A stretch of 64,000 nt of DNA from Candidatus Nanoarchaeia archaeon (GTDB taxonomy: Archaea; Nanobdellota; Nanobdellia; SCGC-AAA011-G17; JACPNG01): assembly GCA_028714095.1 (NCBI GenBank), contig JAQTMY010000001.1, forward strand, positions 2,147-66,146. The letters run 5' to 3'. The notes beneath the pieces are model-generated. The model had not been told where the DNA came from. It was given only the letters and a program-made list of their open reading frames with translations, and searched no databases. The translations under genes and the position numbers were made by a program. Every line of letters starts with the position of its first letter. Within the stretch, counting starts at the first letter, position 1. Below, in pieces: positions 6,490-58,923 of this stretch.

Positions 6490-7197
6490 ATGAAAATTTC
6501 AGTCTTGCTTCCAACCTACAATGAATATGGAAATCTAAAGCCTTTAGTGGAATCAATAAGAAACTCTCTTTCTGAATTCAATCACGAAATAATCATTGTT
6601 GATGATCTAAGCCCGGATAATACCTGGAAACTCGCAGAAGAGCTTGAAAAAAAATACAAAAACGTAAAAGCAATAATAAGAAAAGATGAAAGAGGTTTAG
6701 CTACTGCATTAATGAGAGGCATTAAAGAATCAACAGGAACCCATATTGTTTTCATGGATACAGATTTTAATCACCCTCCAGAATTATTAAAAAAAATGGC
6801 TCATGAATTAAATTACTATGACTTGGTTATAGGCTCAAGATTTGTAAAAGGAGGAGGCGGAGGAGAAATGTCAAAGCTCCAGCATCTTTTAAGTAAAATA
6901 TTAAATTATTACATAAAAGTCATGCTCTCATTGGATGCTAAAGAATCAACTTCAGGTTATTTCATAATCAAAAAATCAATTCTGGATAAATTACCTTTGG
7001 AAAGAGTATTTACTGGTTATGGAGATTATTTCTTTAGGTTGTTATATTTAACAAAAAAACTGGGGGTTAAAACAACTGAAATCCCAGTAAGATATGGGAA
7101 AAGAACCTATGGAGAAAGCAAAACAAGAATTTTAAAGATGGGCTGGAATTATGGAACTGGAGCATTAAAGGTAAGATTGTTTGGGGTAAACAAATAA
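6490..7197 (+). CDS. GT2 polyprenyl/dolichyl-phosphate sugar synthase (DPM1/GtrB-like)
   Basis: MKISVLLPTYNEYGNL...IIIVDDLSPDNT...KAIIRKDERGLATAL...HIVFMDTDFNHPP, the classic Dol-P-Man synthase-like GT2 core. Confidence 0.8.
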   Translation: MKISVLLPTYNEYGNLKPLVESIRNSLSEFNHEIIIVDDLSPDNTWKLAEELEKKYKNVKAIIRKDERGLATALMRGIKESTGTHIVFMDTDFNHPPELLKKMAHELNYYDLVIGSRFVKGGGGGEMSKLQHLLSKILNYYIKVMLSLDAKESTSGYFIIKKSILDKLPLERVFTGYGDYFFRLLYLTKKLGVKTTEIPVRYGKRTYGESKTRILKMGWNYGTGALKVRLFGVNK

Positions 7198-7211
7198 CTT
7201 TTTCTAACGAG

Positions 7212-7610
7212 CTATTTTTGTTTATTTAATTTTTTCTTTTCTAGCCAGCCTATTAAAAACAAAATTCCTATTAAAAATGCAGGCCCTGCGATTATTAGCG
7301 ACCAAGACAACATATATATCTGGAAGGATGCACTCATTAACAATCCTGCAATGTAAAGTATTCCAGCTAAAATAAAAACAATTGAACCAACCCATTCATG
7401 CTTCCAGGATATTATTAAGATAATTAACAGGATTATTACTGGAATATTATGCATAAACAATCCTAGGATTGTCCCCCAAAACCCATAATTTCCTTCAAAT
7501 ATATCTAAAGAAAAAACAGCTAAGAATAATATAAACAAAATTGCCAATATCCTTGGGGCCCAGAATATGAATCTATTAATTTTAGTCATCTCTTCATTGA
7601 TAACATTCAA
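7212..7610 (-). CDS. small 4-TM membrane protein (GtrA-like flippase-associated protein is possible)
   Basis: 132 aa, entirely hydrophobic helices. Sits adjacent to the GtrB-like GT2. Confidence 0.35.
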   Translation of the reverse strand: MNVINEEMTKINRFIFWAPRILAILFILFLAVFSLDIFEGNYGFWGTILGLFMHNIPVIILLIILIISWKHEWVGSIVFILAGILYIAGLLMSASFQIYMLSWSLIIAGPAFLIGILFLIGWLEKKKLNKQK

Positions 7611-7645
7611 GACTTTATAATCTTAACTGCTTGTTTGTATAAACC

Positions 7646-8521: not shown

Positions 8522-10003
8522 TCATTCAGCATAAAACAAACAATAATTTCCTTTTTCTTTGATTAAAGTTAATCCACAGCCTTCAACTTGTTCACAAGAT
8601 TTATCATAAGCAATAATAGAAGAAATATTCAAGGATTTAATAATCTCCTTGAATTCATCGCATTCATTCTCATTCAGATGTTTTTTAGGATCCATTAATT
8701 TATTCCAGTATTCTTCACTTGGAATCTGAGGATAAAATCCAAACGCACTTTCAACATCATAATAAACCGGAAGATAGGCATCATAACTTCTTGGATGAGA
8801 GGTTATAGGAGCAGTCTCTAGAACAATAAACTTGCTTGTAACATAAGGAAATAATTCTAATGCATCATATTCATCCTGAGTATATTCAGTAAAATAAGGA
8901 GTTTTAAAGTGGCTAATTAAGATGCTTGCAATAATAATTAAAATTAAAACAACAGGAATTGATTTTTTTAATAAATTAGAACAACTCTCCCAATCTAATC
9001 TCAAGAATACAAGCAGTATTATCATCAGGAAAAACATAATATATGGATCCTGTGAAATATTTTTTAATAAAGGAACTAAAGGAGTAACTCTAAATAAGAA
9101 TAATATTCCCAATAAAACAGAAGGCAGGAAAAATAAGAACTCTTTCTTGGACTTTTTCTGTTTTAAGTAAATAAAGATTAAAACCAAAAAGACTAGAGCA
9201 ACAATAAAAGCGGTAATATTAGTCAATAACTCTCTGTTAATTCCAAGCCATAACCATTCTCCCTGTACCTGTTCTAATAATCTGGAGTTTTTCAGGTTTA
9301 ACAAAAAAGGAACCCACCAAAACGAAGTTATTGCCAGAGCTATTAATCCAGAAATTCCTATTTTGATTATATCCTTAAACCTCCTAGCTAAAATAAATCC
9401 TAAAACAAGGAATTGGGCTAAGAACATTTCCTGCTGATGTGACAATATTATTGGTATCTCAAGTAATATAAAATAAACAAAAAATTTCAGGTTAAGCTCT
9501 CTCTTGAGATAATAAAGCAACAAGACAAATAACCCCAAAGTAAAGACAATCCCAAACATTGTAGGCATTCTTCCCTGTCTAATCAGATTTCCAATAGCTA
9601 CAGCATTTCCAAAATACAATAAAAAGTAAAATAATATCTCAGAAAATTTCCATTTCTCATTCTTTCCTAGAATATAAATAAAGATAAATGCTACAACAAA
9701 CATCAGTATCCACGAAATCCAGGTAGCAGTCAAAACATTATTGGTTAAAACATACCAGGGATAGGCAAAAAACTGCCATCCAGGCGTATAACTGTGAAAA
9801 GACATAAACCCATTAAACCAATAAGGACATAGGTTGTTAAAACCGCACTTGCCCAGGAAAAACAAAGATGCCATGTAGGAAGCTACATCGTTTGTATAAT
9901 TCAAAGGAAATATTTTTAATAATTTAGATTGGTCTACAATCCTATATAAGAAATATCCACCTAGCATAAAGTTCAAAATCCAAAAAAATTTATCCCTTCT
10001 CAC
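8522..10003 (-). CDS. polytopic membrane protein, GT-C-like glycosyltransferase candidate
   Basis: 493 aa with more than 10 TM helices. Lies in the glycosylation locus. Confidence 0.4.
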   Translation of the reverse strand: MRRDKFFWILNFMLGGYFLYRIVDQSKLLKIFPLNYTNDVASYMASLFFLGKCGFNNLCPYWFNGFMSFHSYTPGWQFFAYPWYVLTNNVLTATWISWILMFVVAFIFIYILGKNEKWKFSEILFYFLLYFGNAVAIGNLIRQGRMPTMFGIVFTLGLFVLLLYYLKRELNLKFFVYFILLEIPIILSHQQEMFLAQFLVLGFILARRFKDIIKIGISGLIALAITSFWWVPFLLNLKNSRLLEQVQGEWLWLGINRELLTNITAFIVALVFLVLIFIYLKQKKSKKEFLFFLPSVLLGILFLFRVTPLVPLLKNISQDPYIMFFLMIILLVFLRLDWESCSNLLKKSIPVVLILIIIASILISHFKTPYFTEYTQDEYDALELFPYVTSKFIVLETAPITSHPRSYDAYLPVYYDVESAFGFYPQIPSEEYWNKLMDPKKHLNENECDEFKEIIKSLNISSIIAYDKSCEQVEGCGLTLIKEKGNYCLFYAE

Positions 10004-17862: not shown

Positions 17863-20104
17863 CTACAGTCATGTCGCTTAAAGTTGTACCTTTAACAACA
17901 ACTGAGGTTCCAGCTAAGCTATAGTCTTTGAAGTTTTGCAAGACTTTAGCAGCTCTTCTGGTATCCATTGCGTTGTATCCAGCAACAACCATAGCTACTT
18001 TATCGCCGTTAGCAACTAATTTGATAAGTGCCTCACCAGCTGAATAAGTTGCTCTGAAGTCGTCAGCAGATCCTACGAACTGCTCAGCTACTGAGTTAAT
18101 AGCTGGTCCACCTACTACAATTAAATTGTAGTTAGCTGGGTTTGTAACTTCAGTGTCCAACATACTCTTGGTTTCGATAGCAGTTACCTCACAGTTACTA
18201 CCTGAAGTAGATGTTGTTGCACTTGTACCCTTTATTACGACGTTTGCAAATACCTGGTCTCCTGGAATATCTAAGACAACTTCATCACTTGCACCATGTG
18301 ACTTTGGATTTCTGATGATTACACCATATTCTGTTCTATGGTCTTCATCCTTGGTTCCAACGTTTGTTGCTTGCCATACCAATTCACCTGCTTCTTCAGA
18401 TGACAATGTGTCACCAAGTGAAGTAAAGATTACTGATGTAGCAGCAACTTGTGTAGCGTCCCAAGTTGTGTTTATGTACTCTGAGTTTGCCAAGTAAGTT
18501 GCATCATACAACTGTAAGTCAATAGATACGTTACCGGCAGCTCCTCCATCCTCATTGTGGATGTAGAATCTTGCATCAGTTCCTTTTGTGTTGTCATATT
18601 CTATGTGACCAAAGTTTGTGTATGTTGCATCAGCTGTTGTAGCATTTCCTGCATAAACTACCTTATTGTTATTGTCTTCATAGTAAATGCTGTATGCATC
18701 TACTGCAGCGCCTGCTCCAGCATAAACACCTGAAATCCAGATTTTGTCTGTTCTCCAGTCTGCAGCTGTTCCATTAGAGTTTGACAAATCTGCTCCGTCA
18801 ACAACCAATGCTTCATCTTTGTTTGCATGTATGTAAATTGATGGTGCAGCAGTTAATCCAGCACACCCACCACAGGCATCACTAAGATCAGCTGAGGTAT
18901 CAAATTCCATTGTAACAGTTGCATAATTGTCATCAGCAACACTTAAGCTGTCCAAACAAATACTTACATAGTTGTTTGGTAAGTCTAAGCACTCGCCAAC
19001 TCCAATTGGGTTATCTGAATCATCATTCCATACAAAGTCGTTTTCAATACCTAATTTTGGACCAGTTACTTCTGCAGTTGAAGTTGTTAAACTTGAAGCT
19101 GCATTGTCATTTAATCCACCTACATCCCATACCCAATTAGGATTGTCTTCGTCTTCACCAACGTAAGCATCTCCATCTTGGAAGGTTTCTTGGGAGTTTT
19201 TACCTATAACTAAAGTAGCAGATCTCTGATCCTTGTTGTCTTCATAGAATGTTTCATCGTTTGTAACTTCAATTCCATTTACTGTTTCAGTACTTGCTGA
19301 TGGAATTGTTTCTGAAACACCATCTACGTTAACAACAACTGCTCCACCTGATCCAACGTTCTCAAGTATTACCTTTTTGCCGTTTACTTCTACTTCGTCC
19401 CCAACATTCATAAAGTACTCAGTACCAACATAAGCTGTAAACTTAGTAGCTAAGGTTGTATCAATACTGGTAATTTTAAGGGTTTTGCCCAAGAATTTAA
19501 GTTCCAATGGTGTTGTACTTGAGGACAAGTTTGGCTGTATTGTCTCATCAAACAAATAGAAGTACTTTATTGCATCTCTGCCCATTTCCATTACTACACT
19601 TGTCTCATAGTCATCATCTGCGCTAGTAAGACTTGTAGCAATTGTGGCGTTTCCTGTTGCGAAAGCCAAGTTTTCTTGGACATCGTAGTCTGCACTTCTA
19701 AATGTAATTGTTGTATCTAATAAAGTTGGTATGTCGTCATCTTGTAATTCTGTATCAAATGTATAGCTGTTTGCATCAGCTACGGCTGCGCCTAATGGAA
19801 TTTGTTCGCTTTTTCCACCAGAAACAGTGATTGATCCTCCACCTGAACTACATACCTTACTTTCAAATTGCAATCCTGCTCCGATATCTAGGACTCCTAG
19901 ACTATCATCTGAAGCTGCGTTGGCACCTACAACGAATACGTTAGAGTTGTCATATTTTCCTCCAACAATAAATGGACTTGGGTACTCAGCTAAATCCAAA
20001 GCAAGTGCACCACCTGCGGTAGCTGCAAGCATACCAGCCCCGGCACCTATAGCAGCAATTTTTCTGATTGCTTTCTTTGCTTTCAGTACAAAGGTTTCTT
20101 GCAT
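17852..20104 (-). CDS. S-layer / major surface (glyco)protein candidate
   Basis: Sec signal peptide (…AAIGAGAGMLAATAGGALA). 750 aa, acidic, Thr/Ser/Gly/Ala/Asn/Asp-rich. Strong GGAGGTG SD 9 nt upstream. GC-shifted codon usage consistent with high expression. Confidence 0.55.
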   Translation of the reverse strand: MQETFVLKAKKAIRKIAAIGAGAGMLAATAGGALALDLAEYPSPFIVGGKYDNSNVFVVGANAASDDSLGVLDIGAGLQFESKVCSSGGGSITVSGGKSEQIPLGAAVADANSYTFDTELQDDDIPTLLDTTITFRSADYDVQENLAFATGNATIATSLTSADDDYETSVVMEMGRDAIKYFYLFDETIQPNLSSSTTPLELKFLGKTLKITSIDTTLATKFTAYVGTEYFMNVGDEVEVNGKKVILENVGSGGAVVVNVDGVSETIPSASTETVNGIEVTNDETFYEDNKDQRSATLVIGKNSQETFQDGDAYVGEDEDNPNWVWDVGGLNDNAASSLTTSTAEVTGPKLGIENDFVWNDDSDNPIGVGECLDLPNNYVSICLDSLSVADDNYATVTMEFDTSADLSDACGGCAGLTAAPSIYIHANKDEALVVDGADLSNSNGTAADWRTDKIWISGVYAGAGAAVDAYSIYYEDNNNKVVYAGNATTADATYTNFGHIEYDNTKGTDARFYIHNEDGGAAGNVSIDLQLYDATYLANSEYINTTWDATQVAATSVIFTSLGDTLSSEEAGELVWQATNVGTKDEDHRTEYGVIIRNPKSHGASDEVVLDIPGDQVFANVVIKGTSATTSTSGSNCEVTAIETKSMLDTEVTNPANYNLIVVGGPAINSVAEQFVGSADDFRATYSAGEALIKLVANGDKVAMVVAGYNAMDTRRAAKVLQNFKDYSLAGTSVVVKGTTLSDMTVVKG

Positions 20105-30286: not shown

Positions 30287-30704
30287 TATCGCAGGGGTTT
30301 ATTACCTCTGGTTTGATCTTATCAGAAACTTTTGAATTTAAAAAATCCTGATAGTTAAAAACTGCCTTCATTAACTCTCCTCTAAGATCATAAGGATTAA
30401 GTTCTTCGATACCTAGGTACTCTTTTAGTTTATCAACTAAATCCGGGAACAAGGGATTCTCGAAAAAGTTAGAATCCATTAAAAAGTCTAAATCGTTCCT
30501 TAAAAAAGATCTATTCAAAAATAAAGCATCTTTTCCTGAATCTTCAAAAAGTCTCCCAGCAATACAATATCTTCCATCTCTCCATTTATGGATATATAAT
30601 AAATGAGTTCCTGCAGGCTCACCACGAACAGATCTTTTTAAAGAATGAGGGGGTTCAATAAACCTAGGATTTAAGTTGTTCATCCTAAAAATAAAGTGAC
30701 TCAA
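30219..30704 (-). CDS. hypothetical protein
   Basis: 161-aa ORF upstream of paralog B. No motif recognised. Confidence 0.3.
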   Translation of the reverse strand: MSHFIFRMNNLNPRFIEPPHSLKRSVRGEPAGTHLLYIHKWRDGRYCIAGRLFEDSGKDALFLNRSFLRNDLDFLMDSNFFENPLFPDLVDKLKEYLGIEELNPYDLRGELMKAVFNYQDFLNSKVSDKIKPEVINPCDIEKSYCDPKRVVNPSNLDDYVH

Positions 30705-30795
30705 AGGGAGTATATAAAGATTATTGTAATAAAAAGAACAGCAACGTATTTAAGTATCCAGAACACTTCTTTTATAGATATTTTCTCAGGAGAAA

Positions 30796-34812: not shown

Positions 34813-35124
34813 TTATCTTACTAACTCTTTGATTTTTGAGTATAAAACCTTATCGATTTTACTGAATTCCTGGACAACAATAGCATTTATTTGTAATTCT
34901 TCTTCATAAGGAATAACTCTCCCAAAAACCCTTACATATTCATGATTATTCTCTTCAGGACTATTAACTTGTATCTGCCCTGTCCCATCATCAACAATAA
35001 AAGTTCCGGAATTTCTAAGGATGACTAAACCAGAAATACATACATTGCTATCATTCTTTGTCAAATCCCTTATGAATTTTTCCTTATGATATTCCATCAA
35101 TATGCCCTCCACCTGTGTTTGCAT
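34813..35124 (-). CDS. OB-fold nucleic-acid-binding protein (RPA-like, small)
   Basis: CISGLVILRNSGTFIVDDGTGQIQV, an OB-fold-like anticodon/ssDNA-binding pattern. Confidence 0.4.
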   Translation of the reverse strand: MQTQVEGILMEYHKEKFIRDLTKNDSNVCISGLVILRNSGTFIVDDGTGQIQVNSPEENNHEYVRVFGRVIPYEEELQINAIVVQEFSKIDKVLYSKIKELVR

Positions 35125-35414
35125 TTAACACACTCAAAAAACCTTGTTTCTGCTTCATCAGAAGCTCTGGTCTGCAAAGTCCAGAAATAAGCTGTGTTAT
35201 GCCCGCATTTAGGACATTCCTCTTTTGTTTTTGGTAGGGTTTCAATCTTTTTATCAACAACCTCGATAATGTCCTCTCTTTTTAATTTTACTTCTTCTTT
35301 TATCATAACATTTTTTCTCGCTCTTGAATTATATCCGCAGTTGCATTTTAATACAACTCCTTTTTTGTCCCTTGTCGGAATTAGTACAGACCCGCATTTT
35401 GCACAAAACATCAT
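35097..35414 (-). CDS. tfs: transcription factor S / RNAP subunit M (TFIIS-type zinc ribbon)
   Basis: CAKCG...CNCG N-terminal ribbon and a C-terminal CPKCGH...TRASDEAETRFFECVKCKHRW with the acidic RSADE-like loop. Confidence 0.85.
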   Translation of the reverse strand: MMFCAKCGSVLIPTRDKKGVVLKCNCGYNSRARKNVMIKEEVKLKREDIIEVVDKKIETLPKTKEECPKCGHNTAYFWTLQTRASDEAETRFFECVKCKHRWRAY

Positions 35415-35415
35415 T

Positions 35416-36006
35416 TTAAAATAACCCCCCTATAAACTGAATTATATTTACAAACCATATCTTTATCCATCCAAGCAATGGAATCTTAAACACTGCTTTT
35501 CCTATAATCTGACTCTCACTAACCTCTTTAGGATCATTAACCTGATTATTATCTCCTTTTGTAATATAAGGATCTACATGAACAACTCTATGTATTATTG
35601 GATAATAAACCATCGATGTTTGATAAACGATTACATCTCCCACTTTTAAGTTTTTAGCTCTAAATATAAAAATTATATCTCCCTTATTAAATCCATTTTT
35701 GAATATAAAATCTGAAAATTGTTCTTTGGTTATTCCTTTATCTAAATACCATTCCTTATTTTTATCCCACCAGACATCAAATCCTTGATGAGTTAATGCA
35801 CAGTCTCCCTTAATTTCAGAATGTTCCATACTGCATGAAACAACAGCAACAATTGGGAGTCCAGTTCCAAAAATTAAACCCAGAACAGGATAAATAACAA
35901 ACTTAACAATAATAAAAGCAATAATCAGATTAACCAACCATGACCATATGGAATTATCCTTCCACAGAAAATACCAAACCTTCCTAAGAGTCTGTTTTAA
36001 CTCCAT
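35416..36006 (-). CDS. archaeal-type signal peptidase I (S26B)
   Basis: N-terminal TM, then VVSCSMEHS (SGSMEP-like Ser box) and ...HRVVHV (His box). Confidence 0.55.
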   Translation of the reverse strand: MELKQTLRKVWYFLWKDNSIWSWLVNLIIAFIIVKFVIYPVLGLIFGTGLPIVAVVSCSMEHSEIKGDCALTHQGFDVWWDKNKEWYLDKGITKEQFSDFIFKNGFNKGDIIFIFRAKNLKVGDVIVYQTSMVYYPIIHRVVHVDPYITKGDNNQVNDPKEVSESQIIGKAVFKIPLLGWIKIWFVNIIQFIGGLF

Positions 36007-36110
36007 TTGAACTTTCCTGTTGTATCTAAAACCTTAAAAAGGTTTCTATAGATACAAATATATACTAAGACCGAGCTAAAAATAAAAATTTAATCCTATA
36101 ATTGATGAAA

Positions 36111-36253
36111 CGCCCCCGTACTTAGGAAAAAGGGATAATCCACGGAAAAATCCACTTTTATTTGGCCGCCACAAGGAGCTCCACAAGGAAGATTTTCTCC
36201 ATAAGTAATCTAAACCAATAATAAAATTTATCCATCCTTAGTTGACGGGGGCG
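36111..36253. ncRNA. structured element closed by a 16-18 bp long-range stem, with internal direct repeats
   Basis: CGCCCCCGTACTTAGG (36111-36126) pairs with CCTTAGTTGACGGGGGCG (36235-36252). Inside it are 2x AATCCAC and 2x CCACAAGGA direct repeats. Confidence 0.3.
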
Positions 36254-36302
36254 CGAATATAATTAAATAATTTCATTATAAATCATAAATAATAATTGGG
36301 GG

Positions 36303-36348
36303 GGGGTTGTCCATGATGAAAATATTATCTGAAATTCTGGACAACCCC
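36303..36348. ncRNA. perfect 11-bp hairpin with C-box/D-box-like (K-turn-like) loop
   Basis: GGGGTTGTCCA-TGATGAaaatattatCTGAaattc-TGGACAACCCC, preceded by a G9 run. Confidence 0.3.
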
Positions 36349-36419
36349 AACCTTCTCCGCGCCTGTTCAATAAGTTCTCAAGTAAATTCGATTTACCTTG
36401 AGATTAGATTGAACAAAGA

Positions 36420-37150
36420 GAACTGTTATTTATCTCATGCGCGGGACGGAACTGAAGTCTAAAGAGGAACCATTTTTCCGCGACAGCGGAATTTTTCGCC
36501 ACCCAACGATAAAACTCCGTCTGGCTTCCTGGTTTATGTAGTTATTGTTAAACATCGGGGATCGTTCGTCGAACGGGTGAGATCCTAACACAGAGGAAAA
36601 TACTGCATTCATATATGGGTTCCCTTCCATTGTGTTGTTAAAACTCCTGCAAAAAAACATCCCAGGATTTTAACATTTGTTGTTAATATGGACCTTGGAT
36701 GCGAAGGTCGGGTTCCGAATCAAAGTAATGGAAAAAAATTTAAAAATCCTTGCAGGTCAGGTCAGATTTTTTCCTACTGACATTCCTCTCCAGTTACCTG
36801 GGGCAAGGCCTGTCTCCTTAACCCTCTGAGTACAGGACAGGGTTTTAATAAGGCCCAGAGAGAGTCTTAAGTTGCAACACATCAGGGTCTTATAACGAAC
36901 TCAGCTTTTTGAGTTCAATCAAGATAGCAAGAACTAAAGAAACCTCTTAGTTGAAAAATACTTGCTACTGCTACTTTTTTAGACGACTGCAACCTGCAAG
37001 GATTAATGGACTGTGGCCAACTATATTTTAATAGTCGAGAATCCAATGGAGCTCCGAGTTCCGCTTTGCTCAATAAGGCACTAAGAGCTCTGTCATTCTT
37101 TCCAATTACTATACTAATCATTACAGATTGGATCCATATAGCCTAACAGT
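36420..37150. ncRNA. GC-rich structured non-coding region, unassigned RNA gene candidate(s) (RNase P RNA / SRP RNA / other)
   Basis: GC content is far above the flanking DNA. Multiple GC-rich hairpins (TTCCGC-GACA-GCGGAA, GACCTT-GGATGCG-AAGGTC, CCTGTC...GACAGG, CCTTGC...GCAAGG). Includes GAAGGTCGGGTTCC, which loosely resembles the RNase P P4 strand. Only short, probably spurious ORFs. Confidence 0.3.
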
Positions 37151-37311
37151 CCAATTTTATTCTAAATAGGTTTTCCATCTTTTTCCACATAACGTAGAAA
37201 GAGAATAATAGAAAAAACTAATATAGATTCTTAATCCAAAGACACTTAAGCCAAAAAAGGCTTATAATTTTTAATAATTAATAAATTCTAAAAAATCCTA
37301 GTTTATAAATT

Positions 37312-37881
37312 TTATTCTTCAATAACAGTTCTATCAGGCCTTTCTTTAAAAACCTGTGCCTGAAAAGTATAAACCTCACATTTTTTTTCTTTCCAGGTAT
37401 TTTCCAATAATCCAGCTTTTATGCAAGTTTGTTTTAAAAATTCTTCACTATCCCAATTATGTTCTTTAGCCACTTGCGGCAATAATAATCCAGAAAATCC
37501 CTGACATCCAACAATTAAACCATCTTTTCCTATTTTTATTTTTTCTTTATATCTTTCAGGTCTTACTTCTAATAAATCAGGAACAGTCAAAACAGAAATC
37601 TCAATTGTCAAATCTTTTAATTCTTTTTCTGTTATTTTTTTAAATCTGGAGTCATGAAATGCGGCTTGTCTTGCCATATCAATTATTACTTTCCCTAAGT
37701 TCTCATAAGGTAAAACCAATCCGATGCATCCTCTTAACTCTTCCTTAACATAAACCGTAACAAAAGAACCTTTTTTTTCCTTAAACAAATTAGTATCTAG
37801 TTCTTTGCCTTTAAAATAAAACTCAATGGACTTTCTTGCAATATCAATTAATTGTTTTCCTTGATCTAAGGTATATTTCAT
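37312..37881 (-). CDS. AMMECR1-domain protein
   Basis: …KGSFVTVYVKEELRGCIGLVLPYE…, the AMMECR1 signature. Confidence 0.8.
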   Translation of the reverse strand: MKYTLDQGKQLIDIARKSIEFYFKGKELDTNLFKEKKGSFVTVYVKEELRGCIGLVLPYENLGKVIIDMARQAAFHDSRFKKITEKELKDLTIEISVLTVPDLLEVRPERYKEKIKIGKDGLIVGCQGFSGLLLPQVAKEHNWDSEEFLKQTCIKAGLLENTWKEKKCEVYTFQAQVFKERPDRTVIEE

Positions 37882-38150
37882 TTCATTATAGCATCGAACT
37901 TACTATTAAATTCTTTGATTCTATCTTTCAATCTAGAAACAGCATCTTTAAGTGCCTTTTCAGGCCCTTTTGAATCAACAATAAAAATAACCTCATCTTT
38001 AAGTGTATGTGGAACATTATAACCAGCTAATTCTACATTCTTATCCATCCATAATTCCTTTCTTAATAAATTGCAGAACGTATGGGTTTCTCCCTTAATC
38101 TGAAACCTCATCCTGTCATCCTTTTTGTCTAATAGTTTAAGTTCCATCAT
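37878..38150 (-). CDS. rpoL: DNA-directed RNA polymerase subunit L (Rpo11/Rpb11 homolog)
   Basis: MELKLLDKKDDRMRFQIKGETHTFCNLLRKEL..VELAGYNVPHTL. Confidence 0.8.
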   Translation of the reverse strand: MMELKLLDKKDDRMRFQIKGETHTFCNLLRKELWMDKNVELAGYNVPHTLKDEVIFIVDSKGPEKALKDAVSRLKDRIKEFNSKFDAIMK

Positions 38151-38277
38151 CCATTTTCATAAACAACTATTTTTAAATGTTTCTATAAATACATATAGAT
38201 ACTTTATCAGGAAAAAAGAGCTAGAAGTCTAGCTCTCCAAAATTATTAAAAACAAGAAGTTTTGGTGGAACAAAATC

Positions 38278-38511
38278 TTATTTTTTTAAATTCCGGCCAG
38301 TTAGTTTGTTCAAATCTCTTTTTGCTCTAACCATAATGGGGATTAGCCCAAAGAGAATAAGGACTAACCCAAAAACAAAAGGAATAGAGAAAGGAAGTTT
38401 ATCATAAGGATGGGGTTCAGCTATAAAACAGACTATCCCTCCAATCACAAACATTAGGAAATAGATCCAATCCCTATAAGCCCTCCATAGAACCTTGAAT
38501 ATTTTAAACAA
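38278..38511 (-). CDS. small membrane protein
   Basis: 77 aa with 2 TM helices. Followed by the AGAGCTAGA-AG-TCTAGCTCT hairpin at 38219-38238. Confidence 0.3.
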   Translation of the reverse strand: MFKIFKVLWRAYRDWIYFLMFVIGGIVCFIAEPHPYDKLPFSIPFVFGLVLILFGLIPIMVRAKRDLNKLTGRNLKK

Positions 38512-38624
38512 AATTCACCTCCTCTGAGGTTTTCCTTTATCAAAAGAAAAAGTTGCATATATGTAGCTAAAGGATCACCCCATTAAATTTAAGATTTAAA
38601 ACAAAAAAACAATCAATTAGGAAT

Positions 38625-41706: not shown

Positions 41707-41708
41707 AT

Positions 41709-43172
41709 CTACTCCCTTATAACTTTCCAGACCTCAAGCCCATTATCATTGTAAACCTTCTTAAATCTCTCGCTGTATTTTAACAAAAATAATAATCCTT
41801 CTTCATCTCCCTCCCAAAGAGTCTCTTTAATGGCTTGGTCAAATAAAATATAATCAACATTATATTTATCCAGAAGCTTCATGGCAGCATTTAAGTCCCT
41901 TGTATTAAACAAAGTTTCAGAATCTTTGTATCTTTCTTTTGAATCTGGGGCAAATATAAAATCCGCATCCATAACAACCGCCCTATTAGCTAATCCAGAA
42001 ATCCAGAATCCTCTCGAGTAATGTGAAAAAACAATGACTTCAGGGTCACTTAAACTTTCAAAATCATCAAGTCCTTTAAGCATACCCTCATTAGGCAAAT
42101 AAGTTCTTATCTCATTGACATATGATAACCCTGAAAAAAACAAACCCATGATTAAAACAAAAATTGAAAATTGTTTTATGAATTTACTTTCAAAATTAAG
42201 TTCAAATAAGTAAAATATTCCTGACGCAACAAGGAATGAGAACATAAATATAAAATAAAATAAGGTTCTTATTTCAAAGAAAGAAAGAATTAATAATAAA
42301 AATACTGCAGAATAAACAATCAGATTATTGTATTTCTCCCTCCAGAGTCTTATCATCCCCAAAACAGATAATATTATTGCAAATATCCCTAATCCAAACT
42401 TTCCTCCAAGGTCAGAGACAAAGTTCTGCATGCTGTACCTTATTCCTTCCTGCTGTATGAAAAATTCAAGACCAAATGGAAAAATTCCTTTTATCAAGTA
42501 TAATACTATTGAAACCAGTATTATTATTGGGATTATAAACCACCTTGTCTTGCTCTCCCTAAACAAGTATAATAAATATAAAAGCAATAAGGCAATTCCA
42601 GGGACTATGCTGAAGAAAAAAGACAGCAAAATAAAAATTAAAGATAATATTTTCTTGTCATACAAAAGCAACAAAAAAGCAATCAATCCAAAAACAACAG
42701 GGAATACATAAAGATTTGATGTTGAAAACAGATAAATAAATGTAGGTGAAAAAATTAAGATCAAACCAACAATTAATGAATCTCTTACCCTTAATTTTAA
42801 TTTTCTCAAGATAATATAAAACAAAAGCACAGATACCAATCCAAGAACAAAGGGCAACATCTTTGATGACAAAAAATAAGTAAATCCAAAAACATGGCTG
42901 AATAAGTAAATTATACTGGGATATAAATTAAATATTATGGTTCTGCCAGCATAGCTTAAATTATCATGAATATTTAAGGGAGTTTCAGCCAGTCTCATAT
43001 AGTGATAAGCCTCCCCTCCAATTAGCAGATTACTTTCTCTTAAAAAATTAGGCAGAGCAATCATTAAGGAAGCAAATACCAGCAACAAAAAAACTAAAAG
43101 TATCTCAACATTTTTTAGTTTTGTATACGGCGGTTTCTCCTTCACTCCATGCCTTTCTGAAACATCTTTCAT
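41709..43172 (-). CDS. GT-C-like polytopic membrane glycosyltransferase candidate
   Basis: 487 aa. First loop LIGGEAYHYMRLAE, more than 10 TM, and a ~100-aa C-terminal soluble domain. Confidence 0.4.
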   Translation of the reverse strand: MKDVSERHGVKEKPPYTKLKNVEILLVFLLLVFASLMIALPNFLRESNLLIGGEAYHYMRLAETPLNIHDNLSYAGRTIIFNLYPSIIYLFSHVFGFTYFLSSKMLPFVLGLVSVLLFYIILRKLKLRVRDSLIVGLILIFSPTFIYLFSTSNLYVFPVVFGLIAFLLLLYDKKILSLIFILLSFFFSIVPGIALLLLYLLYLFRESKTRWFIIPIIILVSIVLYLIKGIFPFGLEFFIQQEGIRYSMQNFVSDLGGKFGLGIFAIILSVLGMIRLWREKYNNLIVYSAVFLLLILSFFEIRTLFYFIFMFSFLVASGIFYLFELNFESKFIKQFSIFVLIMGLFFSGLSYVNEIRTYLPNEGMLKGLDDFESLSDPEVIVFSHYSRGFWISGLANRAVVMDADFIFAPDSKERYKDSETLFNTRDLNAAMKLLDKYNVDYILFDQAIKETLWEGDEEGLLFLLKYSERFKKVYNDNGLEVWKVIRE

Positions 43173-45745: not shown

Positions 45746-45927
45746 AAGAAATCACAACTTTATATATTTAATGGAAAATAAAAATAACTCTTGTTTCCCT
45801 TCGGGACGTTGCACTAAAATCCAACCTCTCCAAGTATTCGGGGGAAACTAACAGGAATTATGTGTAATATTACTCAGGGCCTTTTTTAACGAAAGTATTA
45901 TAAAACTGATGATTCCCTAGATTTATT

Positions 45928-46098
45928 ATGAATAAAAAAAATTTCTGTTTAAGTAGATTTATAGGTGGAGTTATATTTTGTTTAAGCAGTGCAATTCTAA
46001 TATTTTTTGAGAATAATATTCCTGTACCAGTTAAAATTAGTTTATTAGTTGTAGGAATGGCACTGATTGCAACATCAAAACAGAAATTGCTAAAATAA
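45928..46098 (+). CDS. small (56 aa) membrane protein, not in ORF track
   Basis: MNKKNFCLSRFIGGVIFCLSSAILIFFENNIPVPVKISLLVVGMALIATSKQKLLK, with 2 TM helices. Confidence 0.2.
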   Translation: MNKKNFCLSRFIGGVIFCLSSAILIFFENNIPVPVKISLLVVGMALIATSKQKLLK

Positions 46099-46199
46099 AA
46101 AAAGCTCTGAAACTAGACTAGACTACGTTTCGCCTGTAAGAGTCAGTTCGGATAACCACTCTTAATCCTATAAATAAAGATTATAAAAAAAGAAAAAAA

Positions 46200-46370
46200 C
46201 TACTCGGTAGTTTCTTCTTCTGTAGATTCTTCAGTAGATTGACTTTCTTCCGATTCTTCAGGTTCAGATGTCTCCTCTGCAACAGAACAAGTGCATTCTT
46301 CTGGGGGAAGATTACATCCTTCACATTTCCCTTCTTCAGTTAAATTTTTCTTACATTTTTCACAAATCAT
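46200..46370 (-). CDS. small (56 aa) zinc-ribbon protein with acidic tail, not in ORF track
   Basis: MICEKCKKNLTEEGKCEGCNLPPEECTCSVAEETSEPEESEESQSTEESTEEETTE. Followed by the AAGAGT...ACTCTT hairpin. Confidence 0.4.
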   Translation of the reverse strand: MICEKCKKNLTEEGKCEGCNLPPEECTCSVAEETSEPEESEESQSTEESTEEETTE

Positions 46371-46459
46371 TTTTTTACCTCACATAGTTTATAAAAAAAA
46401 CCAATCCATTAATCTTATAAAAGCGTTTCGGTTTTAGGTATTATAAATATTTTAGTATC

Positions 46460-53900: not shown

Positions 53901-56900
53901 TGGAGAAAATGCATCAGATCCTTTGAATGCATACATGACAATAACTACTTCTGGAAGTGTTGGTATTGGAACGATTTCACCAACACAAAAATTAGATGTT
54001 AATGGAAATGTAAACATCTCAGGTTATTATTATGGAGATGGGAGTCAGCTAACAAACATTTCAACTTACAATTCAACTTATGATATCTGGGCATACAATC
54101 AGACAACTCCTGCTATGGATTATATAGACTCTGTTATCAGTGATGATAATGACAGTTGGTCCTCTACTTACAATTCAACTTATGATATCTGGGCATACAA
54201 TCAGACTACTCCTACTATGGATTATATAGACTCTGTTATCAGTGATGATAATAACAGTTGGACCTCTACTTACAATTCAACTTATGATATCTGAGCATAC
54301 AATCAGACAACTCCTGCTATGGATTATATAGACTATGTTATCAGTGATGATAATGACAGTTGGTCCTCTACTTACAATTCAACTTATGATATCTGGGCAT
54401 ACAATCAGACAACTCCTGCTATGGATTATATAGACTCTGTTATCAGTGATGATAATGACAGTTGGTCCTCTACTTACAATTCAACTTATGATACAAAAGC
54501 AGATTATCAATTTACAAATAATAACTTTAATGGCTCAGGGAATATGACCACTACTGGAAGAATTGGTATCGGAACAACCAATCCAAGTCAGATGCTAACT
54601 CTTTACGAGCAGGATGGTTCTACAGATATTAGACTAGATACAGGAGCATCACAAGGGTTTTATTATTCTGACATTATGAATAATTATAATACCAACAACG
54701 CATTTCAGATTACAACCGGAGGAGGGAATATAATCTCATCAACTTCTCACGGTTACAAAACTACAATTGGGGGTGGGGACGCTATTCTTGTTGTTTCTTC
54801 GACAGATAAAAATATTCAATTAACAAGTGATGTTGGAATAGGAACTTCTTCTCCAACACAAAAACTTGATGTAAATGGAAGCATAAATGCAAGCGGGGAT
54901 TTGTTTCTTTCTAACGGCACTAATTCTAAAATAGAATTTTATGGAGGATTAATTTTTTCAGATGATTATTCCTCTACAGCAAATGCACGGATAGCAGCTT
55001 CAGGCGATAATATTTATCTTCAAAATACCAATTCTTCAGGGGGAATAGTCTTTAGTGGAACAGGAGGTACATCTATCGAAGGAGATATTATTTTAAGCAC
55101 AACTGGAAATGTCGGAATCGGAACAGCAAGTCCGACAGCAAAACTGGATGTTAATGGAAATGCGGTTGTTGAAGGAAGCTTAAATGTCACGCAGAACGCA
55201 ATTGTAAACGGAAATGTTGGAATTGGAACAGCTTCTCCGACTGCAAAACTTGAAGTTGTTGGAAATGCAGTTACAAACGATATAACAAACTGGACTGCCC
55301 AATCAGCTTCTGGAACAAGTGCTTGGGATTCTGTGACTTATGGGCATGAATTATTTGTTGCGGTTTCAACTTCTTATCCCAGGGTCATGACTTCTACTGA
55401 CGGTATAACCTGGACTAACAGAACTGCATTTTCAGCAGATCCATGGAGATCAGTAACTTATGGAAACGGATTATATGTTGCTGTTGGTGATGGCGGAGCA
55501 ATCATGACTTCCCCTGAGGGGATAGCATGGACAGGAAGAAGTGGTGGAACAGACGATTATGTTTCTATAATTTATGCAAATAATTTATTCGTCGCTGTTG
55601 GTAATCGTGGCGATCATGAATTAATAACTTCTTATGATGGAATAAGCTGGAATGTTAGAAGTCTCCCTGCAAATAATGAATGGGTCGGAGTAACGTATGG
55701 AAATGGGACGTTTGTCGCTGTCAGTAATAATACTGGTGCTGCCAATCAGGTTATGACTTCTACTAATGGTATAGACTGGACTCTAAGAAATGCATCCAAG
55801 GTTGCTACTTGGCAGTCTGTAACTTATGGAAACGGATTATTTGTAGCCGTCGCATATGATGGGGATGTCTCGAGTTCGCCAGATGGGATAACCTGGACTA
55901 ACAGAACAGCATCTTCAGCAAGTACGTGGAAATCAATAGCTTATGGAAATGGGAAATTTGTAGCGGTTTCAATTGACGGGAACATAATGACTTCCCCTGA
56001 TGGGATAAGCTGGACTGATCAAACAGCTCCAGAGGCAAACTCTTGGCAGTCTGTAACTTATGGAAATGGGAAATTTGTAGCGGTTTCATCTGATGGAACC
56101 AACCAGGTCATGACTTCAGGGGACATAGAAGGAAATCTTTTTACACTTAGTGACTCCGACGGAACCTGCATCCACAATCCAGAAGCAGGAAGTGAAACAA
56201 TTTCATGTTCTTCAGACAGAAAATTAAAAGATAATATTACAGATGCTACTCCAGTATTGGATGAACTTGAAAAAATAAAAGTCAGAGATTACACAATTAA
56301 AGCTTCAGGAGTAGAAACAACAGGAGCAATTGCACAGGAACTACAGGAAACAAATCCGGACATGGTTCATGAAGAGAATGGAGAGTTATTTGTTGAACAG
56401 CCAAACCCATGGAAATTACTGAAAGCAATTCAGGAGTTAAGTGCAAGAATTGATGCTTTGGTTGGAGGGACTTATTCTGTTCAAGTTAAAAATGTTAATC
56501 AAGATCAAATTGGGGTCGCTAAAATTGGAGTTAATGAAACTGAAGGTTATGTTGAATTTAATAAAGAGTTTTCTGAAACTCCGGTTGTGACTGCTACAGT
56601 TATTGGCTTGCCTAGTTTCTTTTATGGAGTGGATGAAATTACTGCAAAGGGATTTAAGATTTTGATTAGTTCACCACAAGATAAAGAAATAAGTTTTAAT
56701 TGGCGTGCTTCAGGAGAGACTTCAAGTAGTGAAATAGATTATAATCAAACTCTTAGTGAAAGTTTAGAATCAAATATTAATATCTCTGAGAATGAAACTC
56801 TTGAGGTTAATATAACTATTCCTGAGGAAAATGAGAATATGAGTTCTAATGAGACTATCGAAGTCCTTGAAGAGAATACTACTTTAACAAATGGAACTAA

Positions 56901-58125: not shown

Positions 58126-58213
58126 TTCAATTAATTCTAATCATTTATTTTCAGAAGTTAAAACTATTCTTATCAAAACCTTTAAATAACCCTTTTCTCA
58201 CAAAAAACATTAA

Positions 58214-58287
58214 GGGATCGTAGTTCAACCTGGGAGAACACCAGACTGAAGCTCTGGACGTTGTGGGTTCAAATCCCGCCGATCCCA
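58214..58287 (+). tRNA. tRNA-Phe (anticodon GAA)
   Basis: 74-nt cloverleaf: acceptor GGGATCG/CGATCCC, D stem GTTC/GAAC, anticodon stem CCAGA/TCTGG with loop CTGAAGC, T stem GTGGG/CCCGC with loop TTCAAAT, discriminator A. No encoded CCA. Confidence 0.9.
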
Positions 58288-58847: not shown

Positions 58848-58923
58848 CTCTATTTCTTTTATTTTATAAAATCCAGGCTATAGAAACCTTTTTAAATGGA
58901 ATATTTTCTCTTACCATATCAAA

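Follow-up and report, generated by a model that had tools for sequence, protein, structure and literature searches.

Candidate structured RNA genes in a clade-specific island between the AMMECR1 and signal peptidase genes of a Nanoarchaeia archaeon

The island and its occurrence in related genomes

In a 64-kb stretch of a Candidatus Nanoarchaeia archaeon (assembly GCA_028714095.1, contig JAQTMY010000001.1, positions 2,147 to 66,146; hereafter the window), a gap of 1305 nt (36007-37311) separates a signal peptidase gene (35416-36006, minus strand) from an AMMECR1 gene (37312-37881, minus strand). This gap, here called the island, is the largest one of the window that is free of open reading frames (ORFs), and it contains candidate genes for structured non-coding RNAs (ncRNAs). 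DPANN archaea possess very small, tightly packed genomes, and to our knowledge their ncRNAs beyond rRNA, tRNA, RNase P RNA, and signal recognition particle (SRP) RNA are almost unexplored. By ORF tiling, which is a crude measure and lists as gaps those regions that lack an ORF of at least 80 amino acids (aa), the genome is approximately 89% coding. The overall GC content of the island is 0.365, the highest among window gaps of more than 200 nt, and it amounts to 0.41-0.45 at 36300-37100 compared to approximately 0.30 in the flanks. An earlier note on this DNA had described a GC-rich, ORF-poor island between these two minus-strand genes, in agreement with these values. Some coding stretches of the window (18000-20000 and 55200-56400) likewise have a GC content of approximately 0.40. 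Since the stretch 35001-38200 has the very same bases in an independent Logan assembly, the island is no assembly artefact.

A first protein scan of genome contigs for relatives yielded no match, while later searches for homologues of AMMECR1 and signal peptidase revealed a clade of only three, roughly equidistant genomes, followed by relatives with at most 58% identity. The clade comprises the genome of the window, L002 (GCA_028713535.1), and L004 (GCA_028714375.1). Amino acid identity within the clade is approximately 75-84% for most flanking proteins and 65-76% for the signal peptidase, and coding DNA is approximately 77% identical. In the next relatives, proteins are 48-58% identical and the gene order is the same. 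In all three clade members, the gap between AMMECR1 and signal peptidase is ORF-free and elevated in GC, and it measures 1305 nt (window), 1484 nt (L002), and 949 nt (L004). In the distant relatives L006, L007, L130, and L131, AMMECR1 (RpoL in case of L131) is located 28-91 nt from the next gene, which is the signal peptidase gene in L006, L130, and L131; in L006 and L130 this short spacer already holds a similar signal peptidase promoter box. Because the spacer of the distant relatives is short and already equipped with a promoter box, the island represents an insertion, restricted to this genus-level clade, that separates the stop codon of AMMECR1 from the ancestral promoter of the signal peptidase gene. 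It interrupts what is presumably an ancestral gene cluster of RpoL, AMMECR1, signal peptidase, TFS, and then PCNA.

Similarity between the islands of the window and L002 is confined to the first 170 nt past AMMECR1 (79% identical), the signal peptidase promoter, and a weakly alignable stretch running from 36638 to 36008, in addition to an exact 21-nt block (36742-36762) and the partner arm of a long-range helix. The three congeneric Nanoarchaeia populations share a single sequencing run, SRR22315509, from which the Logan contigs L001, L003, and L005 all originate, and the Logan contigs are base-identical to the contigs of the NCBI metagenome-assembled genomes (MAGs). Logan contig L003 ends within the island, at L002 position 9387.

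The longest ORFs of the window's island comprise 76 and 68 aa, neither with a Pfam match, and the islands of L002 and L004 likewise lack ORFs of more than 76 aa. In six-frame blastp comparisons between the islands, only the edges were conserved, namely as DNA that matched equally in all frames. Pfam searches with the ten longest frames of the islands gave nothing credible, and a stop-codon census for recoding found no hidden protein. A hidden, frameshifted, or pseudogene protein is ruled out by the ORF lists together with these three analyses. Thus the two short ORFs, already held to be spurious in the earlier note, show neither a Pfam match nor conservation at the protein level, and the conserved, frameshifted protein ORF which that note had offered as an alternative was looked for in all three islands and not found. 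A 76-aa frame of L002 (8731-8958, plus strand) reaches 24.2 bits (cut-off 20.9, E 3e-5) with PF01623 (Carla_C4), a nucleic-acid-binding protein of carlaviruses. This is almost certainly a chance match of a Cys/Arg-rich frame, and it is without counterpart in the window.

Structured modules and transcription signals

A global MAFFT alignment of the three islands put the helices out of register, and covariance models were used instead. The models R1 and R2 are single-sequence models built from the window copy with hand-checked structures; covariation controls consisted of sliding the partner column and of 500 shuffles. For folding z-scores, the preferred null consisted of shuffles within 60-nt blocks, which keep the local composition, together with two GC-matched coding controls. 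Dinucleotide shuffles of the whole region (36290-37160, z -5.7 on the plus and -7.5 on the minus strand) were set aside, since they even out the uneven composition along the region and their z-scores were judged inflated. The following features lie in the part of the island nearest to the signal peptidase gene.

36033-36049, minus strand: ancestral signal peptidase promoter ATAGAAACCTTTTTAAG, kept in each genome of the clade; it delimits the insertion on the right-hand side
36078-36088, minus strand: UUUUUAUUUUU with two runs of U5, located downstream of the small RNA; in L002, the copy is immediately followed by T6 (9981-9986)
36110-36254, minus strand: candidate rod-shaped small RNA of approximately 145 nt (model R1, compensatory pairs)
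36275-36282, minus strand: TATA-like box TTTATAAT, which precedes the 5' end of the small RNA's helix P1 by 22-23 nt; fits the TTTATAAA boxes of the genome
36303-36348, minus strand: hairpin with an 11-bp stem (GGGGUUGUCCA/UGGACAACCCC) and the loop AGAWUUUCAGAUA, with a C9 tract and then an AU-rich spacer behind it (inverted-repeat search)
36351-36449, minus strand: three-way junction, a closing helix CCGCGC/GCGCGG around two hairpins (model R2)

The small RNA is predicted to form a rod composed of a long bulged terminal helix, an asymmetric internal loop of 19-20 nt, and, at the apex, a multi-helix junction that carries the conserved motif GGAGCUCC(U/A)UGU; UGUNR-like motifs are present as well. 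Its structure was derived by hand for the minus strand, and each pair was verified as canonical. R1 matches the syntenic stretch 9846-9989 of L002 with 37.4 bits and an E-value of approximately 3e-7. In the model-fitted alignment of these two sequences, 97% of the cells are paired and 13 of 39 pairs are changed on both sides, compared to 2-4 with slid partner columns and to 0 of 500 shuffles. The terminal helix differs in most of its sequence between the genomes (GCGCCCCCGU/ACGGGGGCG in the window vs ACAAGGUG/CACCUUGU in L002), and the L002 copy, folded independently, adopts the same rod (z -4.2). A DNA pattern search for the small RNA retrieved the own genome of L002 only; with a looser pattern, at least 120 chance matches were obtained in metagenome contigs, and none of the 100 that were screened (L010-L109) matched R1.

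In architecture, this RNA is reminiscent of rod-shaped protein-binding RNAs such as 6S RNA, Y RNA, and helix 5-8 of 4.5S/SRP RNA, with which it shares an end-to-end terminal helix, bulges, and a large asymmetric internal loop. As in these rods, unpaired motifs are kept while the stems covary, a likeness to be read as a functional analogy only. Unlike them, the RNA has no Rfam match to 6S, Y_RNA, or SRP families, and it lacks a GGAA/GNAR tetraloop and an SRP54-binding loop. We know of no 6S-like or Y-like RNA established in archaea.

The hairpin 36303-36348 and the adjacent three-way junction form a second module, covered by R2 (36296-36460). R2 matches positions 9641-9801 of L002 with 24.8 bits (E approximately 1e-4). 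The 46 pairs are paired to 96%, with changes on both sides in 12 of them, whereas the slid controls gave 0-2 such changes and the shuffles 0 of 500. Independent folds of the window and L002 copies show a matching architecture, with a z-score of -5.9 for the module, and in a scan of 150-nt segments 36300-36449 alone is outstanding (z -5.0 and -6.5). In case of the hairpin, the sequences of both the stem and the loop are kept in L002 (9745-9795). Directly 3' of this hairpin, a tract of nine G on the plus strand (nine C on the minus strand) occupies 36298-36306, where L002 has CCUCACC instead; homopolymer tracts can vary in length.

For both modules, the RNA is assigned to the minus strand because each copy has six or seven G·U pairs in the tested helices that would be A·C mismatches on the plus strand. 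The TATA-like box and the U-runs point to this strand as well. In the related islands, the minimum free energy (MFE) is better on the strand in gene orientation as well (-315.9 vs -301.8 kcal/mol in L002 and -227.6 vs -200.6 kcal/mol in L004). On this strand, the L004 island carries a C(UUCG)G hairpin, and nine T-runs compared to three A-runs were counted in the L002 island (9000-9990).

A box resembling the B recognition element (BRE) and TATA element, with the sequence AGAAACCTTTTTAA or TTTATAAA and also ATAGAAAC(C)TTTTTAA, is situated 22-27 nt upstream of start codons in this genome. It was seen at 36033-36049 (minus), 58878-58895 (plus), and 58150-58213 (plus), as well as before many other genes, and in case of tRNA-Phe, AAAACCTTTAAATA is located 23 nt upstream of the 5' end. 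Judged from this spacing, the genes of this genome appear to be essentially leaderless. By the same pattern, TTTATAAT is the putative promoter of the small RNA with a predicted start near 36253, and UUUUUAUUUUU is probably an archaeal terminator. The features of the remaining part of the island are as follows.

36450-37140, minus strand: GC-enriched, ORF-poor body, unalignable to L002 and L004 beyond short blocks; it makes up most of the interval 36420-37150 singled out in the earlier note
36552-36642, minus strand: two adjacent hairpins, the first closed by AACACA/UGUGUU with the conserved loop UAUGAAUGC (MFE folds, nhmmer)
36742-36762, minus strand: 21-nt block ACCUGACCUGCAAGGAUUUUU, which contains the 3' arm of a long-range helix and has U5 and U7 runs downstream; exact match to L002 9160-9180
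36992-37004, minus strand: 5' arm AAUCCUUGCAGGU of this 13-bp perfect long-range helix (inverted-repeat search); arm kept in L002 9053-9061
37161-37176, minus strand: BRE/TATA-like box GGAAAACCTATTTAGA, which fits the promoter pattern of the genome and is kept in L002 8702-8728
37248-37263, minus strand: hairpin AAGCC-UUUUUU-GGCUU followed by U-runs, just downstream of the AMMECR1 stop codon in the 79%-identical 170-nt stretch (U-runs 37253-37258 and 37212-37217)

The last of these hairpins is the probable end of the RpoL-AMMECR1 transcript. Similarity to L002 stops near 37137-37142, right past the GGAAAACCTATTTAGA box, from which the start of a minus-strand transcript is predicted near 37137.

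Within the body, the excess of structure is moderate. Against 60-nt block shuffles, the interval 36420-37150 has z-scores of -4.4 (plus) and -2.6 (minus), and segments of 150 nt starting at 36375-37050 range from +0.5 to -2.5. All three island bodies are elevated in GC and fold better than block shuffles, though their sequences are unalignable. Of 300 shuffles, 7 had an inverted repeat at least as good as the 13-bp repeat 36745-36757/36992-37004. As a helix, this repeat of the island closes a domain of approximately 260 nt, and 36740-37010 folds with a z-score of -3.4 on the minus strand, equalled by 1 of 200 shuffles. No exact match between the bodies of the window and L002 is longer than the 21-nt block, which is followed by T6 (9176-9181) in L002 and has no further copy in the 64-kb window. 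With its U-runs, the block looks like a terminator, the TATA box of a next unit, or both. The motif CCUUGCAGG (36745-36757) has two potential partners, the local GGGGCAAGGCC (36801-36811) and ACCUGCAAGGAUU 234 nt away (36992-37004), and for this reason alternative folds of the domain or an action of the repeats at the DNA level are possible. When the sequences of the window and L002 are folded separately, both MFE structures show the two adjacent hairpins, nhmmer aligns the stretch to L002, and the loop UAUGAAUGC sits in the hairpin 36587-36636. Minus-strand runs of at least five U are located at 36954-36958, 36742-36746, 36732-36738, and 36651-36657. As these U5-U7 runs punctuate the body, several short units are suggested rather than one RNA of approximately 1 kb.

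Comparison with known RNA families

At gathering thresholds, the Rfam scan of the whole window returned tRNA-Phe (58214-58287) only. A second scan at E<=10, covering 35950-37350 and the islands of L002 and L004, gave noise far under the gathering thresholds (among others matches of small nucleolar RNA (snoRNA)-like, microRNA, CRISPR-DR52, and U6atac models), and thus the Rfam search proposed in the earlier note led to no family. ARAGORN, too, found tRNA-Phe as the sole tRNA of the window and none in the island, intron-containing or otherwise. RNaseP_arch, Archaea_SRP, and models of group I and II introns, hammerhead, twister, and other catalytic cores gave no match in the three islands at E<=10, and the 5S_rRNA model matched neither at the gathering threshold nor at E<=10. 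SnoRNA models reached 17-21 bits on the island compared to gathering thresholds of 42-50, with SNORD70 at E=3. A regular-expression scan of both strands detected no C/D'/C'/D arrangement. The specific candidates named in the earlier note, i.e., RNase P RNA, SRP RNA, 5S rRNA, an intron-containing tRNA, and C/D box small RNAs (sRNAs), are therefore excluded by the Rfam models, ARAGORN, and the box search.

Inspection of the individual candidates led to the same outcome. In case of C/D box sRNAs, the hairpin 36303-36348 shows AUGAUGA and CUGA within its stem on the plus strand, but the D box is not next to the stem, the neighbouring covarying helices point to the opposite strand, and the lone C-box-like AUGAUGA at 36314 (plus) reads UUGUUGC in L002. 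With archaeal RNase P RNA, the island shares the character of an intergenic GC-rich structured RNA, and GAAGGUCGGGUUCC briefly resembles the 5' strand of P4. However, this P4-like strand forms a local hairpin, GACCUU...AAGGUC, which is not conserved in L002, and no covariance model matched at E<=10. Furthermore, the locus is missing from L006, L007, L130, and L131, and most of its sequence is unalignable at approximately 80% protein identity. For SRP RNA, the candidate three-way junction has apical parts that are wholly different between the window and L002. As to 5S rRNA, the small RNA has a bulged rod of approximately 22 bp before any junction instead of a junction immediately at helix I. 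By eye, an SRP Alu or S-domain and a 5S rRNA were also considered as identities of the small RNA and rejected, as the defining loops and covariance-model matches are absent. The loose resemblances to P4 of RNase P RNA and to loop C of 5S rRNA that the earlier note had pointed out thus find no counterpart in the Rfam models of these families.

Klein, Misulovin and Eddy (2002) reportedly screened AT-rich archaeal genomes for GC-rich ncRNA islands, and the Hgc and sscA RNAs are represented in Rfam; the Rfam models Hgc and sscA gave no match. The present island resembles such GC-rich archaeal ncRNA islands in being ORF-free, in its GC content above an AT-rich background, in its stable helices, and in the flanking AT-rich promoter and oligo-T signals. 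It differs in that it stems from a metagenomic DPANN archaeon that is not known to be hyperthermophilic, is found in three congeneric genomes only, and evolves much faster than the known families.

Interpretation and alternative explanations

Compensatory pairs in excess of the controls, the general mark of a structured ncRNA, were found at 36110-36254 and 36303-36449. On these grounds, two conserved structured RNA modules are well supported in 36110-36449, the quarter of the island nearest to the signal peptidase gene, and for 36450-37140 an RNA nature is plausible but unproven. The unannotated structured RNA gene or genes proposed in the earlier note hence hold for the island as a whole, given two modules with compensatory changes and no hidden protein, but the best RNAs lie mostly to the left of the interval 36420-37150 to which they had been assigned. 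Likewise, the four hairpins quoted there are present, but the structural excess of that interval is moderate.

The explanation that we regard as reasonably probable is a clade-specific cluster of novel minus-strand ncRNA genes. An insertion would have split the contiguous gene cluster and would now carry ncRNA genes transcribed on the minus strand, in the same direction as the flanking genes. Each unit would be driven by an AT-rich BRE/TATA box approximately 23 nt upstream and would end at oligo-U runs. The body, which may start at the conserved promoter-like box, would represent one or several short, fast-evolving, hairpin-rich RNAs, with constraint probably limited to the domain-closing helix with its U-run and to a few loops. 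These RNAs may act via conserved unpaired motifs (AGAWUUUCAGAUA, GGAGCUCC(U/A)UGU, and UAUGAAUGC) that bind protein or RNA, the helices serving as scaffold. Such a protein- or RNA-binding scaffold role is proposed, with low confidence, because unpaired motifs are kept while the stems covary in the two supported modules, and it would account for a GC content and structure that are kept amid sequence drift.

Several observations weigh against an ncRNA gene cluster. In the L004 island the promoter alone aligns, and no copy of R1, R2, or R3 is detectable. The compensatory counts are derived from two sequences only, window and L002, in alignments fitted to the models. Two U5 runs lie inside the window's small RNA, and the U5-U7 runs of the body would interrupt any long minus-strand transcript. 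The two GC-matched coding controls gave z-scores from +2.2 to -4.0, so that the moderate excess of the body overlaps one of them, and R3, the model of the two adjacent hairpins, finds the syntenic L002 site of 36552-36642 without significance, with 11.2 bits and an E-value of approximately 0.9. Nothing points to a binding partner or target, and a search of the window with the conserved loop motif gave chance-level matches without enrichment. Finally, promoters, ends, and RNA stability are all predicted from sequence.

Some of these points fit an alternative in which only the part nearest to the signal peptidase gene is a functional RNA, and 36450-37140 is decaying DNA of an old insertion or of repeated insertions at a hotspot, with hairpins and GC content being residual or due to chance. 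The body is unalignable though coding DNA is approximately 77% identical, the L004 island is wholly unrelated, island length varies from 949 to 1484 nt, U-runs are numerous on both strands, and most 150-nt segments have z-scores of +0.5 to -1.8, along with the overlap with one coding control under local-composition shuffling. On the other hand, three lineages would all have to retain approximately 0.7 kb of junk at 40-45% GC against an AT-rich background, in a genome that is streamlined and largely coding. Moreover, a promoter-like box is conserved right at the start of the body, both arms of the long-range helix and the 21-nt block are kept amid scrambled sequence, and all three bodies fold better than shuffles; we therefore consider decay of the body unlikely. 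Going beyond a mere ncRNA cluster, the island might be the domesticated cargo of an element that entered a conserved operon of information processing in one DPANN genus, encoding either a new class of archaeal ribonucleoprotein RNA (for instance a 6S- or Y-like rod, binding the machinery of transcription or RNA quality control) or guide-like RNAs whose specificity is provided by the variable body. This speculation, to which we give little credence, is compatible with the conservation of unpaired motifs, with a promoter that stays fixed ahead of a rapidly evolving body, and with an L004 island that is not homologous to the others. An element acting at the DNA level, i.e., an invertible segment or recombinase site at the 13-bp repeats or a remnant of a miniature inverted-repeat transposable element or insertion sequence, would explain why the window and L002 keep the sequence of the repeat arms, without covariation, around inserts of 234 nt and approximately 105 nt, respectively. 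The clade-specific insertion and a third partial copy of the motif, which permits alternative pairings, point in the same direction. Yet no further copy of the repeat or the island is present in the 64-kb window or in related loci, and there is neither a transposase or recombinase ORF nor a terminal inverted repeat at the borders or a target-site duplication. Matches to phages and plasmids (blastn) and motif matches in IMG/VR were not obtained, the orientation is the same in two assemblies, and the covarying helices of R1 and R2 are an RNA-level signature, all of which renders such an element very unlikely.

Fast-evolving small proteins, encoded by the 68-aa ORF 36915-37121 (minus) and the 76-aa ORF 36430-36660 (minus), are a highly improbable explanation too. 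The 68-aa ORF starts approximately 40 nt past the promoter-like box and is called as a gene in L001, and in L002 an ATG-initiated ORF of approximately 66 aa follows this box at a comparable distance, but the peptides of the window and L002 show no similarity, the window ORFs have no Pfam match, and L004 has no counterpart. In addition, leaderless genes place their ATG 22-27 nt past the TATA box, and the ATG found there opens a frame of seven codons only. Even less credible is a highly divergent housekeeping RNA (RNase P RNA, SRP RNA, or 5S rRNA) missed by the Rfam models. In AT-rich archaeal genomes, an island of high GC content classically marks structural RNA genes, and the loose likeness of GAAGGUCGGGUUCC to P4 as well as the UGUNR-like motifs of the small RNA could be taken in its favour. 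Such an RNA is unlikely because the island is mostly unalignable between genomes with approximately 80% identical proteins, whereas catalytic and SRP54-binding cores are nearly invariant. The lack of any match at E<=10 in three islands, the absence of the locus from relatives that must own such RNAs, and the shape of the small RNA, a rod with an apical junction and not of the 5S type, argue against it as well.

A cluster of clade-specific ncRNA genes would thus be an orphan structured archaeal ncRNA locus, known from two to three MAGs of one sample and of moderate importance. Here a gene cluster that is otherwise contiguous throughout is interrupted by over 1 kb of DNA without genes. As this DNA has been retained in three congeneric genomes and harbours helices under selection, the locus is a concrete, testable candidate for lineage-specific RNA biology. 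It also limits the rule that a GC island denotes a known structural RNA, as a probable RNA locus was found and the expected families were not.

Besides the island, four gaps of more than 450 nt without an ORF of at least 80 aa occur in the window (30287-30795, 38151-38624, 41707-42327, and 45746-46459). All of them have a GC content of approximately 30%, and they may contain small genes or AT-rich RNAs. In L004, two called genes (77 and 207 aa, 6764-7633) are situated between a methyltransferase gene and RpoL, both of which called genes are lacking in L002, and at the matching place the window has the ORF-poor gap 38151-38624 with a 77-aa ORF. The neighbourhood is thus variable beyond the island itself.

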